In this document: one piece after another, positions 393 to 1,765 of the stretch
How positions within the stretch are numbered: the stretch's first letter is position 1
Layout of the letters: each line of letters starts with the position of its first letter
Source: a virus
Taxonomy: Duplodnaviria > Heunggongvirae > Uroviricota > Caudoviricetes
Virus record (IMG/VR): IMGVR_UViG_2728369554_000022
Location: 1 to 17,352 of that record
Length of the DNA stretch: 17,352 nt
Reading direction: 5' to 3' (one strand)
Program-made: the position numbers and the translations under genes
Notes under the pieces: generated by a model
What the model was told of the DNA's origin: nothing
Databases searched by the model: none
The model's input: only the letters and a program-made list of their open reading frames with translations

Positions 393-408
393 TTTTTCTC
401 CTGTAAAT

Positions 409-430
409 AAAAAAGGGCCTCTGTCGGCCC
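409..430 (-). terminator. Hairpin plus T-run immediately upstream of the holin RBS (attenuator or terminator)
   Basis: Minus strand reads GGGCC-gacaga-GGCCC followed by TTTTTT. Confidence 0.4.
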
Positions 431-475
431 GTAAAAAAACACCCCGTCAAAGGCACCCGCAGATACCTTTTGTGT

Positions 476-519
476 GGTGTTATCTGGTGTTTTCTGGTGT
501 TTTCTGGTGTGGTGTGTGC
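476..519. repeat. Tandem ~10-bp repeat (TGGTGTTTTC-like, 3 to 4 units)
   Basis: tggtgttatc / tggtgttttc / tggtgttttc / tggtgtggtgtgtg read directly from the sequence. Confidence 0.7.
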
Positions 520-568
520 AGGACACAGATGTGAAAAAGGTCCGCTGGTACGAACCCTGTATATGGAT

Positions 569-594
569 AAAAAAATGCCCGTCAGGAGACGGGC
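569..594 (-). terminator. Rho-independent terminator-like hairpin
   Basis: Minus strand: GCCCGTC-tcct-GACGGGC followed by ATTTTTTT. Confidence 0.45.
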
Positions 595-643
595 CAGAGC
601 ATTCATCGTGTAGTAATAGAATTATATTTATAATGGTCGCCAC

Positions 644-720
644 CAGAATGAGTCGTCAACCTATAAAGCCATCCTGGCTTACTGTACGTGTGCGCATGGA
701 ACAGGTAACGACTCATTCTG
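644..720. repeat. Perfect 13-bp inverted repeat with 51-bp spacer
   Basis: cagaatgagtcgt (644-656) and acgactcattctg (708-720) are exact reverse complements. Confidence 0.7.
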
Positions 721-895
721 CTAACGACGTTTACAAGTAATAATCACATACCATTATGTAATACAAAAAAAGCAGCACTGAAACTGTAACCGTTCAGATA
801 TTACAGCATGAAGAAAAACAATAGTACCTACAAAGCTGTTCTCCGCGAAAATTCGCCAGTGCTGATAAAGCTATGCCTCGTTTGTTTTACAGGAG

Positions 896-967
896 AGCGG
901 GTAGCGGGAATCGAACCCGCATCATCAGCTTGGAAGGCTGAGATAATAACCATTATACGATACCCGC
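896..967 (-). tRNA. tRNA-Gly (anticodon UCC), CCA not encoded
   Basis: Reverse complement GCGGGTATCGTATAATGGTTATTATCTCAGCCTTCCAAGCTGATGATGCGGGTTCGATTCCCGCTACCCGCT; 7-bp acceptor stem, anticodon loop CTTCCAA, T-loop GGTTCGATTCC. Closely resembles E. coli glyT from memory. Confidence 0.75.
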
Positions 968-970
968 ATA

Positions 971-1046
971 TGGTGCCGACTACCGGAATCGAACTGGTGA
1001 CCTACTGATTACAAGTCAGTTGCTCTGCCTGCTGAGCTAAGTCGGC
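971..1046 (-). tRNA. tRNA-Thr (anticodon UGU), phage-type, CCA encoded
   Basis: Reverse complement GCCGACTTAGCTCAGCAGGCAGAGCAACTGACTTGTAATCAGTAGGTCACCAGTTCGATTCCGGTAGTCGGCACCA; cloverleaf with one T-stem mismatch, anticodon loop CTTGTAA. Confidence 0.65.
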
Positions 1047-1658
1047 GTTGGTTCCTCGGGAGTGAGATGAGATGCCCCGATACATAATGTATCATTCCCT
1101 CGGAACCACAAAAATAATACTAATAAATAATCAGGATGCAATATTTACCAACTATGTAATTGTAAATTTGTTTGAATAAAAAATTACTAAACACGCCATA
1201 TCGCCCCTCTAAAAAAGGGGGGCGTAATAATATAAGTGATACTAAGCATCACATTACTAAATACATTGTATTAAGCTGGCGACCCGATGCGTAATCCCTT
1301 GATATTAAAAACTCCAAACAAAATCAGAATGCCATCTGAATACACAAAAAGCTGGCTTCACACCACCCTGTATGTGAACGCAGAACTCATCACCCCACGC
1401 GCTTTCGCAGCCAGTACACAACCTGTGTCAAACGCTGGCAGATGAACAATGAAACTGCCAGCACGGTCACCTATCTTAGTTCGCGTCTCGTATTCTGCTT
1501 GATAATAAGTTTCCCGTTCTTCTCTTATTGTGCATTTTTCAGTTTATCTGTCAGTAGCATTTTGACATACCAATAATTCCTGTCGAGAAAATCAGTGAGC
1601 TAAAAAACCGTATTCACAGCCTCGGGCACGTTTAACGTACCGCACCACTTTTCGGGCG

Positions 1659-1685
1659 TAAAAAAACCCACATTAAGCGGGTTTT
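1659..1685 (-). terminator. Weak hairpin plus U-run downstream of the Q-like gene (tR'-like candidate)
   Basis: Minus strand: AAAACCC-gcttaatgt-GGGTTTT then further T residues. Only 3 GC pairs in the stem. Confidence 0.3.
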
Positions 1686-1765
1686 CAGGTGTCCATGTCT
1701 GCTATACGCCTCGTGATACAGCTTTACGAAGCGTACCAAAATTGAAGCAGTTTGTACGTAAAAAA

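Follow-up and report, generated by a model that had tools for sequence, protein, structure and literature searches.

What does a phage keep in the almost 1.4 kb that separate a Q-like antiterminator gene from its holin gene, and why does this stretch encode so little? The question is raised by a 17,352-nt window of viral DNA (Caudoviricetes; IMG/VR record IMGVR_UViG_2728369554_000022, positions 1 to 17,352), which is the whole stretch analysed here. We propose that the region is very probably the late-operon leader of a lambda-like E. coli prophage with an antiterminator of the DUF1133 branch within the Q21 family. The arrangement, the features of which are collected in Table 1, is an ordinary one: a switch made of a promoter and a terminator, two host-derived tRNA genes, a row of terminators and then the holin. 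An earlier sequence-only reading had already taken the region for a late leader, and this view is borne out by a Q21-related antiterminator candidate upstream, a conserved promoter-like site and a terminator immediately after it, and, downstream on the same strand, a holin, a second holin and an endolysin. That reading placed the Q-like stop codon correctly at 1768-1766, but not the holin start, given as 392, the ATG being located at 390-388.

Table 1. Features of the leader and of the gene that precedes it (window coordinates; all on the minus strand).
Feature	Position	Strand	Description
Q-like antiterminator gene	1766..2308	(-)	DUF1133 family, 180 aa, GTG start; outside the leader
Late leader	391-1765	minus	E. 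coli lambda-like prophage
Candidate late promoter (PR'-like)	1741..1769	(-)	-35 TTGATT, 17-nt spacer, extended -10 TGcTTCAAT
Invariant initially transcribed block	1707..1735	(-)	TACGCTTCGTAAAGCTGTATCACGAGGCG; candidate Q-loading and pause region
tR'-like intrinsic terminator	1660..1685	(-)	AAAACCCGCTTAATGTGGGTTTTTTT; dG -10.4 kcal/mol, then U7 run
Two weaker hairpins	1602..1643	(-)	second followed by U6; predicted fold
Stump of 65-aa ORF	1551..1568	(-)	ATG TCA AAA TGC TAC TGA; Shine-Dalgarno AGGA upstream
Module B, conserved non-coding block	1319..1419	(-)	cloverleaf-like, three arms
Candidate promoter of the tRNA pair	1114..1141	(-)	TTGCAT, 16-nt spacer, TATTAT; AT-rich DNA upstream
Leader hairpin	1050..1107	(-)	GGTTCCGAGGGA ... 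TCCCGAGGAACC; 58 nt, ends 3 nt before tRNA-Thr
tRNA-Thr (UGU)	971..1046	(-)	CCA end encoded; 69.8 bits
tRNA-Gly (UCC)	895..967	(-)	no encoded CCA end; 65.4 bits
Multibranch terminator-like structure	765..864	(-)	after the tRNAs; closing helix CAGCACUGG/CAGUGCUG, then CU7
Long hairpin	635..724	(-)	~27 bp; perfect 13-bp core CAGAATGAGTCGT/ACGACTCATTCTG
Terminator T_a	569..594	(-)	GCCCGTCTCCTGACGGGCATTTTTTT; dG -13.5 kcal/mol, U7 run
Terminator-like hairpin T_b	534..557	(-)	dG -9.7 kcal/mol, then U5
10-nt tandem repeat	474..510	(-)	ACACCAGAAA; 3.6 copies; C-rich, G-poor stretch
Terminator T_c	433..481	(-)	outer helix ACACC/GGUGU, inner 9-bp hairpin, U7 run; dG -19.6 kcal/mol
Terminator T_d	409..430	(-)	GGGCCGACAGAGGCCCTTTTTT; stem GGGCC/GGCCC

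The identity of the gene directly upstream of the leader is the starting point of this proposal. Its product scores 351.7 bits against Pfam PF06576 and 26.9 bits against PF06530 (Phage_antitermQ, cut-off 26), and both domains are present in almost all homologues among the matches listed. The protein also matches PHROG 753, annotated as 'anti-termination protein Q-like', and a profile built from 27 homologues matches Q21 in the PDB (6P18 and 6JNX, E=1.9e-5). Judged from these sequence comparisons, the DUF1133 protein is a remote relative of Q21. Its AlphaFold model (pLDDT 59) is too poor for a fold comparison, and the Foldseek matches obtained with it are meaningless. DUF1133 proteins have been annotated as Q by means of HHpred (PMC8136144); in the literature, we found no experimental work on the promoter, the loading site or the terminator of this branch.

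The DNA that follows the Q stop codon is widespread: 2,237 of 5,426 E. coli genomes carry its first ~200 nt after a DUF1133 gene with ~80% identity. The promoter candidate, the invariant block and the terminator described below fall within the first ~110 nt. Across the 32 distinct sequence variants found downstream of these genes, the motif AAACTGCTTCAAT is nearly invariant, and we infer that it belongs to the late promoter, a candidate without a strong consensus match. The -35 hexamer (1769-1764) overlaps the Q stop codon and, since it lies inside the coding sequence, its conservation is not independent evidence. The extended -10 element covers 1749-1741; in its hexamer, TTCAAT, a T replaces the A usual at position 2, which is why the candidate was not listed by a consensus promoter scan.

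Just beyond the candidate promoter, a 29-nt block (1735-1707) is again nearly invariant in the 32 variants, flanked by freely varying sequence over 5 nt on its upstream side and ~25 nt on its downstream side. A small GCUU/AAGC hairpin and a -10-like TATCAC lie within the block, which, by analogy with the Q-dependent cassette (bioRxiv 10.1101/651190), is the best candidate for Q utilisation. No clear direct repeat of 8-bp subsites, as described for Q21, was found within the 29 nt, and TATCAC, the sole -10-like pause candidate, would sit at about +17 to +22. The pause elements of lambda and phage 21 lie less far downstream than this. The block is followed by the tR'-like terminator, whose hairpin and U-run occur at the same offset in 31 of the 32 variants and which places an intrinsic terminator between the promoter candidate and the late genes. 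Five stems are found at this position: CCCGC/GUGGG, CCGC/GCGG, CCCGC/GCGGG, CCACC/GGUGG and CCCGU/GCGGG. The two weaker hairpins that come next (1602-1643) fall in a conserved spacer that precedes a 65-aa ORF in relatives; this spacer is ~80% identical in H10407-type prophages, which do not retain the U-run.

A transcript running from ~1734 to 1660 would give a short RNA of ~75 nt. The StxS, IsrK and lambda 6S RNAs are produced when transcripts from Q-controlled late promoters terminate shortly after their start (PMC7547250, PMC4825925), and the predicted RNA resembles them in position, in predicted origin and, with ~75 nt against 74 nt for processed StxS, in length, but it has no sequence or Rfam similarity to them. 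Could the leader then be a reservoir of trans-acting small RNAs, in which the ~75-nt RNA would act on host mRNAs in the manner of StxS and IsrK and a second RNA of ~52 nt (about 622-569), ending at T_a, would resemble the short prophage anti-sRNAs? We consider this unlikely, although several observations speak for it. Short RNAs terminated past Q-controlled late promoters do regulate, as documented for StxS of Stx phages (PMC7547250) and IsrK of Gifsy-1 (PMC4825925), and sRNA genes are known from the slot downstream of PR' (PMC4104026). The putative ~52-nt RNA would resemble the anti-sRNAs in combining a variable 5' end with a conserved 3' end: conservation covers the 3' part before T_a (GATGAATG..GCCCGTCTCCTGACGGGCAT7), and the 20-30 nt that precede this part vary between groups. 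A promoter-like TTGACG-18-CATTAT is present at 659-630, and a search with 521 nt gave a weak match to AgvB (22.4 bits, E=0.06).

The comparison with the anti-sRNAs nevertheless breaks down on closer inspection. AgvB, AsxR and the Pas sRNAs of EHEC and EPEC prophages (PMC4104026; bioRxiv 10.64898/2026.05.13.724894) are likewise short RNAs with strong terminators located between late promoter and holin; they accompany a different holin type (class II). No Rfam sRNA family reaches its threshold anywhere in the leader, AgvB and AsxR (RF02702 and RF02703) included. We rejected an AgvB-like anti-sRNA at 570-619 because its 22.4 bits compare with a gathering score of 56, and because the match rests mainly on T_a and lies on the wrong strand: it is in the late sense, whereas AgvB in O157 PV15-279 is antisense to the late genes. 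Members of the AgvB/AsxR family are expected to lie antisense to late transcription and to carry a CACAACA-type GcvB target motif; pairing of the leader with GcvB is no better than in controls. Homology with the Pas sRNAs was dismissed as well, the best blastn match to the E2348/69 pas loci (PasA, PasC and PasD) having an E-value of 0.12 over 21 nt. The CA-rich repeat does not qualify as a GcvB sponge, its duplex of -36.2 kcal/mol being no better than those of shuffles (-38.5 +/- 4.3) or of other parts of the window, where it is not among the best partners of GcvB-R1. The promoter-like site at 659-630 lies inside the arm of a conserved hairpin and its -10 is not kept in relatives, and such sites are not more numerous in the region than expected by chance (7 against 4.2 +/- 2.2). 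As for the ~75-nt RNA taken by itself, hardly any variation is seen in its first 29 nt where they follow DUF1133 genes, and the leader start is present in ~40% of complete E. coli genomes; that it is a constitutively made trans-acting regulatory RNA of lysogens nonetheless seems to us improbable.

The sequence-only reading had described 1047-1700 as free of any ORF with a ribosome-binding site, and the coding capacity is indeed near nil, but an ATG preceded by a Shine-Dalgarno sequence does exist at 1568 and opens 5 codons. The eight largest ORFs of the leader, on both strands, have no Pfam or PHROG match at E <= 0.1, and their frames are broken in relatives by indels of 2, 4 and 10 nt; hidden small proteins were rejected on these two grounds. 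Alignments with the prophages of ETEC H10407 (L004) and RM8082 (L005) reveal a deletion: the bareness of the leader stems from the loss of a 65-aa ORF and a DNA methyltransferase that relatives possess, and not from special design. The stump of the ORF is directly followed by the diverged last ~25 nt of the methyltransferase.

Beyond the deletion, module B is 79-93% identical in three prophage groups and, in RM8082, comes directly after the methylase stop codon. In the consensus fold it is closed by CUGGCUG/AGCCAG, followed by U5, and the next small hairpin is followed by U4. It has no match in Rfam nor in a search of a phage collection. A degenerate tRNA at this position was discarded, ARAGORN and the Rfam tRNA model being negative even at E<=10. 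Module B and the long hairpin at 724-635, both conserved, might be additional processed RNAs.

The deletion also invites the idea that the whole region is the decaying DNA of a defective prophage, in which hairpins and repeats are functionless and the loss of genes marks a general erosion. Only 4 of 5,426 E. coli genomes have the leader in full, the copy number of the 10-nt repeat is variable, and the wider 201-nt stretch around module B (1290-1490) folds no better than shuffles (z=+0.5), as such erosion would have it. We hold it to be very improbable, for the elements outside the deletion are all retained by prophages that have diverged independently, with an identity close to that of the holin coding sequence (0.85 against 0.86), and the terminator stems change yet stay paired. 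Furthermore, a near-identical prophage (99.4%) has an apparently intact set of Q gene, two holins, endolysin and 33 late genes, and the two tRNAs form perfect cloverleaves, one of them with a compensated stem change.

These two tRNA genes, announced by the sequence-only reading as Thr-UGU and Gly-UCC, are real: both are found by ARAGORN and neither is rejected by the Rfam model (RF00005, gathering score 29; scores in Table 1). Compared with the genes of E. coli K-12, tRNA-Thr differs from thrU at two D-loop positions only (97% identical) and tRNA-Gly differs from glyT by four substitutions (95% identical), including a compensated change of an acceptor pair from C-G to U-A that accounts for two of them. 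By sequence, both are host-derived near-copies of the thrU and glyT genes. The pair probably has its own promoter at 1141-1114, a site conserved in 52F4 and in phi467-type modules. Its -35, TTGCAT, has only 3 of 6 consensus matches, and the same hexamer is seen by eye upstream of K-12 thrU. Capture of the thrU promoter was nevertheless rejected, only the tRNA bodies being homologous and the upstream similarity not being significant (E=0.19). The hairpin at 1107-1050 is likewise conserved in 52F4; it was discarded as a tRNA remnant, since it does not align to the tRNAs that occupy this position in relatives. Downstream of the tRNAs, the multibranch structure retains its closing helix in 7 sequences, and in its inner arms some pairs change on both sides.

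The slot is a cargo site, as the parallel drawn by the sequence-only reading with Stx phages had suggested. Relatives hold tRNA arrays, a DNA methyltransferase, a CPBP protease or other cargo at this place; tRNAs occupy it, on the late strand, in 14 of 20 related loci, with a content that differs widely from one relative to another. The holin-proximal leader sequence is shared with the Stx2e phage phiP27 and the LT-IIb prophage SerU-LTIIb. In lambdoid prophages, the tRNA genes ileZ-argN-argO lie upstream of stx and downstream of the late promoter. The tRNA genes described here are similar in slot, strand and service to codons rare in E. coli, and they differ in their identity, Thr(UGU) and Gly(UCC), and in the absence of an encoded CCA from the Gly gene.

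Such mobility is what would be expected if the tRNA pair were an independent cassette ('moron') expressed in the lysogen from its own promoter up to its own terminator, to the benefit of the host or against tRNA-cleaving defences, the flanking terminators then belonging to the cassette and not to late-gene control. In fact, the block 1146-895, which comprises the promoter-like site and both tRNAs, moves as a unit into unrelated phages such as phi467 (~92% identity), and a strong terminator lies downstream of it. We consider this reading less likely than not. The anticodon stem-loops are, however, identical to those of thrU and glyT, so that the copies would not escape an anticodon nuclease cutting the host tRNAs, and T_c and T_d precede the holin even in loci devoid of tRNAs. 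Moreover, an independent cassette complements the late leader that we propose and does not exclude it.

The suggestion that the phage tRNAs offset a codon bias is modestly supported. When the 33 late genes of the 99.4%-identical prophage are compared with the flanking host genes, the codons ACA, GGA and GGG are 1.8-2.2 times commoner in the former: 12.5 against 7.1 per 1000 for ACA (p=0.017), 13.5 against 6.4 for GGA (p=0.0016) and 19.1 against 8.8 for GGG. But other rare codons, ATA, AGA and AGG, are just as enriched and have no matching phage tRNA, so that codon matching is at best a partial explanation.

Hairpins with U-runs are located exactly where the sequence-only reading had seen them (1685-1660, 594-569 and 430-409), but its 'at least three' is an undercount. 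A strict scan, in which a site had to consist of a closed hairpin (dG <= -9 kcal/mol) with, after it, >=4 U left over from a U5+ run, gives 6 terminator-like sites in the sense orientation (1684, 1383, 594, 557, 481 and 457/430) and 0 on the antisense strand; in 200 dinucleotide shuffles the mean was 0.19 +/- 0.42 and none reached 6. The strict count was used because that of a looser scan is not significant (7 sites against 3.2 +/- 1.7). Beyond this count come the multibranch terminator (864-765) and weaker hairpins (1643-1602 and 1340-1319). From tRNA-Gly to the holin, the 516 nt as a whole are strongly folded, with -175.8 kcal/mol against -128.8 +/- 6.7 for shuffled sequences (z=-7.1).

Comparison between prophages points to the preservation of these structures. 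In the long hairpin at 724-635 the stem is conserved, four of its pairs change on both sides and the apical 35-40 nt diverge. The stem of T_a is group-specific (for example GCCCGTC/GACGGGC and ACCGCC/GGCGGT), as is that of T_b (GGGTTCG/CGGACC, GGCTCGC/GCGGGCC and GGTCCGC/GTCGGGCC). T_c is conserved in ~90 related loci, in which it directly precedes, together with T_d, the holin ribosome-binding site, T_a and T_b being placed before them. In 50 distinct sequences, the stem of T_d is nearly invariant and its loop varies. The Shine-Dalgarno sequence of the holin, AGGAGA (402-397), begins six nt past the U-run of T_d. The 10-nt repeat (TRF: period 10, 96% matches) occurs in 1 to 4 copies among near-identical prophages, and no exact length is therefore required at this place. 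The notion that the holin-proximal cassette is more constrained than the holin gene was rejected, its identity tracking that of the coding sequence. The long hairpin is a possible RNase III site, by analogy with the RNase III processing sites of the lambda late leader (Daniels et al. 1988, cited in PMC7547250): here too, an extended hairpin with nearly perfect pairing lies between an upstream RNA and the lysis genes.

The mechanism we propose combines these elements into a late-gene switch, of which the start sites, the pause and the read-through are all predicted. In the lysogen, the RNA polymerase would start at a constitutive promoter whose -10 lies at 1746-1741 and which overlaps the end of the Q gene, and would stop ~75 nt later at 1685-1660, leaving a short RNA like the lambda 6S RNA. 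After induction, Q would load onto the polymerase at 1735-1707 and the terminators would then be ignored. The polymerase would traverse the whole leader, the two tRNAs, which read ACA/ACG and GGA/GGG, would be cut from the transcript, and the expression of the holin, endolysin and virion genes would follow. The terminators at 864-765 and the four within 594-409 would serve as insulators that prevent unmodified polymerase from entering the holin gene, be it polymerase started at the tRNA promoter or polymerase that has leaked past the first terminator.

This order corresponds to that of the lambda-type Q-dependent late cassette, which consists of Q, PR', a sigma-dependent pause element, tR' and the late genes (bioRxiv 10.1101/651190; PMC9388147). 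As in lambda and phage 21, a Q-family gene is followed by a promoter-like site at its 3' end, a conserved block, a terminator ~75 nt further on and the lysis genes. The differences lie in the protein, which is of the DUF1133 branch, and in the leader, which extends over 1.4 kb and contains at least 5 further terminators.

In conclusion, the region is a phage late-gene switch of the textbook type and brings little that is new in principle. If the ~75-nt RNA did act in trans, it would be a regulator of the StxS/IsrK type specific to a large and unstudied class of prophages. As a natural minimal leader, the deletion variant lends itself to use as a clean reporter construct. Four terminators in a row directly before this type of holin suggest how a phage can carry independently expressed cargo (here tRNAs, in relatives other genes as well) in its late leader without risking premature lysis. 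Finally, more than 2,000 of the 5,426 complete E. coli genomes encode antiterminators of the DUF1133 type, and the 29-nt block and the co-varying terminator offer precise targets for the study of this branch.

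The reading of positions 391-1765 (minus strand) as a late leader is supported, and this leader is a new representative of a familiar type of regulatory region. In this part of the window every gene is encoded on the minus strand, and the leader separates a Q-like gene from a holin gene whose ORF begins at 390, not at 392 as first read. The product of the Q-like gene is matched by the Pfam DUF1133 model (351.7 bits) and, barely above the cut-off of 26, by the Phage_antitermQ model (26.9 bits); both domains are found in nearly all the homologues listed, some sources label these homologues antiterminator, and PHROGs labels the family Q-like. 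A single-sequence search of the PDB gave weak matches to the Q21 protein, and a profile of 27 DUF1133 homologues matched Q21 (6P18, 6JNX; E=1.9e-5), with the alignment covering a W-rich N-terminal motif as well as the C-terminal half. The predicted structure (pLDDT 59) is too uncertain for fold comparison. In a published survey DUF1133 is given as Q by HHpred (PMC8136144), and we accept the gene product as a candidate Q21-related antiterminator.

Features of the leader and its flanking genes, in order of transcription
Feature	Position	Strand	Basis
DUF1133 protein ORF, 180 aa	GTG 2308 to end 1766	-	Pfam, PHROG
Candidate -35 TTGATT, 17 nt upstream of extended -10, overlapping DUF1133 stop codon		-	32-variant layout
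Extended -10 reading TGcTTCAAT, within candidate promoter motif AAACTGCTTCAAT		-	common to 32 variants
Five variable bases after AAACTGCTTCAAT		-	32-variant layout
Nearly invariant 29-nt block	1735-1707	-	32-variant layout
~25 variable bases after 29-nt block		-	32-variant layout
GC-rich hairpin and U-run, fixed offset	1685-1660	-	32-variant layout
Remnant of 65-aa ORF: ATG TCA and four codons, Shine-Dalgarno kept	1568-1551	-	alignment to relatives
Cloverleaf-like conserved non-coding block and U-run	1419-1319	-	consensus fold
Promoter-like TTGCAT-16-TATTAT ahead of tRNA pair	1141-1114	-	sequence reading
tRNA-Thr(UGU)	971-1046	-	ARAGORN; Rfam tRNA model 69.8 bits
tRNA-Gly(UCC)	895-967	-	ARAGORN; Rfam tRNA model 65.4 bits
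Multibranch structure closed by CAGCACUGG/CAGUGCUG, then CU7	864-765	-	seven sequences
Long hairpin, 13-bp perfect core kept, apex diverging	724-635	-	seven sequences
Terminator T_a	594-569	-	seven sequences
Terminator-like hairpin T_b	557-534	-	
10-nt repeat ACACCAGAAA, 3.6 copies	510-474	-	
Terminator T_c	481-433	-	
Terminator T_d	430-409	-	
Phage_holin_8 holin ORF	begins 390	-	Pfam, PHROG

With ~80% identity, the first ~200 nt past the DUF1133 stop occur behind DUF1133 genes in 2,237 of the 5,426 complete E. coli genomes; 93 collected loci, mostly IMG/VR viral contigs, have them as well. A common layout is found in 32 distinct variants of this sequence; the hairpin and U-run are present in 31, the extracted sequence of the remaining variant ending too early, and the hairpins have five different stem sequences. 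This layout is that of the Q-dependent cassette of phage 21 (bioRxiv 10.1101/651190). We infer that the unit combines a promoter, a pause and Q loading: a transcript begun near 1734 would be ~75 nt long, and the Q-utilisation site proposed in the sequence-only reading likely lies in the nearly invariant block.

The three hairpin/U-run elements of that reading are present at 1685-1660, 594-569 and 430-409; its "at least three" holds for these, and the total is higher. Under strict criteria (a closed hairpin with dG no higher than -9 kcal/mol and, after it, four or more U left of a U5+ run), the 1,375-nt leader has six sites on its sense strand and zero on its antisense strand; dinucleotide shuffles gave 0.19±0.42, 0 of 200 reaching six. 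Outside the leader, the same strand has 11 sites in 15.6 kb of the window. In positions 1-2600 the standard scan placed six terminator-like sites, every one of them on the minus strand, the number expected being 2.7±1.5, and a loose scan gave seven against 3.2±1.7, no significant excess. For the 516-nt segment running from tRNA-Gly to the holin, the folding energy is -175.8 kcal/mol; shuffled versions give -128.8±6.7 (z=-7.1).

Within these 516 nt, seven diverged sequences back the multibranch structure, the long hairpin and T_a. Four pairs of the long hairpin are altered on both sides across the seven, and it may be an RNase III site; RNase III processing in the lambda late leader is indicated through a reference listed in PMC7547250. 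Among the 65 distinct sequences found upstream of the holin in 96 holin-carrying loci, T_c and T_d precede the holin ribosome-binding site in most, and T_b and T_a, with group-specific stems, in many. This holin-proximal cassette was recovered by Megablast from 144 of the 5,426 genomes, and phiP27 (a Stx2e phage) and the LT-IIb prophage carry it too; the idea that it is more conserved than the holin coding sequence was rejected, the two being about equal (0.85 against 0.86). The terminators would insulate the lysis genes from polymerase without Q modification, including that coming from the tRNA promoter. The repeat ACACCAGAAA duplicates ACACC, the 5' arm of the T_c outer helix; its copy number varies between 1 and 4 in prophages that are otherwise near-identical, which fits replication slippage.

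The two tRNA genes recognized at the outset were both accepted by ARAGORN and by the Rfam model. The phage tRNA-Thr differs from K-12 thrU at two positions, both in the D-loop, and the tRNA-Gly from glyT at four, among them a compensated pair in the acceptor stem. Both anticodon arms match the host's exactly, and homology to the host thrU-tyrU-glyT-thrT cluster is limited to the tRNA bodies. The tRNA-Gly gene (ending ...GCTCTCC) lacks the encoded 3' CCA that host glyT and the phage tRNA-Thr possess, and its product would need CCA addition after trimming. Other phages and prophages carry the promoter-like site, a 58-nt hairpin and both tRNAs as one block, ~92% identical, and a survey of 20 related loci found late-strand tRNAs in the slot in 14, in differing combinations. 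The LT-IIb prophage SerU-LTIIb (KU052038.1, 1100-4130) has the tRNA-plus-holin leader in two copies, the first comprising tRNA-Arg, tRNA-Gly and holin1a, the second tRNA-Thr, tRNA-Gly and holin1; its LT-IIb toxin genes sit past the endolysin, outside the leader slot. The proposed offset of codon bias has modest support. When 33 late genes of the OkiPb01716 prophage (99.4% identical) are compared with seven flanking host genes, ACA (12.5 against 7.1 per 1000), GGA (13.5 against 6.4) and GGG (19.1 against 8.8) are enriched, but so are ATA, AGA and AGG, for which the window's phage provides no tRNA; the data agree with codon matching, which does not explain everything.

The near-absence of coding capacity was borne out: neither Pfam nor PHROG has a family matching any of the eight largest ORFs in the leader, and their frames are disrupted by indels in relatives. 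After the same leader start, ETEC H10407 carries a 65-aa ORF, a DNA methyltransferase, tRNA-Ile, tRNA-Arg, small ORFs and the same holin type, and the cargo of RM8082 and RM11911 is similar. In the window, the sequence picks up again after the ORF remnant ~25 nt ahead of the methylase stop. Because the stump joins the last ~25 nt of the methylase, the bare leader is a deletion derivative, and its absence of genes is due to deletion. The whole 1,373-nt leader is rare, being found in 4 of the 5,426 genomes, from cattle and baboon, and in two IMG/VR contigs.

Other loci were observed outside the leader. Rfam strongly matches RalA at 15092-15270 (-) (210 bits, gathering score 170); this sRNA is the antitoxin to RalR in a toxin-antitoxin pair known from the Rac prophage. 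SraC/RyeA (172 bits) and SdsR/RyeB (114.5 bits), a core-genome sRNA pair, match both strands of 16747-16891; since this is near the window's far end, the prophage may end, or have integrated, beside that locus. Upstream of the Q-like gene, the nin-like region contains a hok/sok-type toxin-antitoxin locus at 3798-3972 (-) (hok CDS ~3681-3818 (-); Rfam sok match 117.7 bits), a Hok/Gef gene is annotated at this position in a 99%-identical prophage, and Sok occurs in 7 of 20 related loci. In the OkiPb01716 prophage (NZ_AP042701.1 2029000-2069700), an annotated anti-CBASS Acb1-family gene adjoins the terminase genes (locus positions 32217-33653), and among the baseplate and tail genes sits an inserted gene for a type I restriction endonuclease (17042-18202).

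The neighbourhood of late leaders often encodes sRNAs (PMC4104026; bioRxiv 10.64898/2026.05.13.724894), such as the convergent anti-sRNAs AgvB and AsxR (PMC4104026) and the Pas sRNAs adjoining holin genes (bioRxiv 10.64898/2026.05.13.724894). In an Rfam search of the leader, tRNA alone reached threshold. AgvB was rejected (22 bits against a threshold of 56, and on the sense strand, real AgvB being antisense to late genes), as was the CA-rich repeat as a GcvB partner, its pairing being no better than controls; no similarity to the leader was found for the E2348/69 Pas loci. Three prophage groups share the cloverleaf-like block, which in relatives lies immediately behind the methylase gene; it matched no tRNA or Rfam model, and no clear covariation was seen in it. 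In a related prophage (L036), the sRNA STnc100 (2177-2363, 86.6 bits) occupies the same slot, ~750 nt downstream of the DUF1133 gene. StxS (PMC7547250) and IsrK (PMC4825925) arise by termination after Q-controlled promoters; neither was detected in the leader. If the predicted short leader RNA were likewise a regulator, this would raise the interest of the very common DUF1133 antiterminator cassettes.
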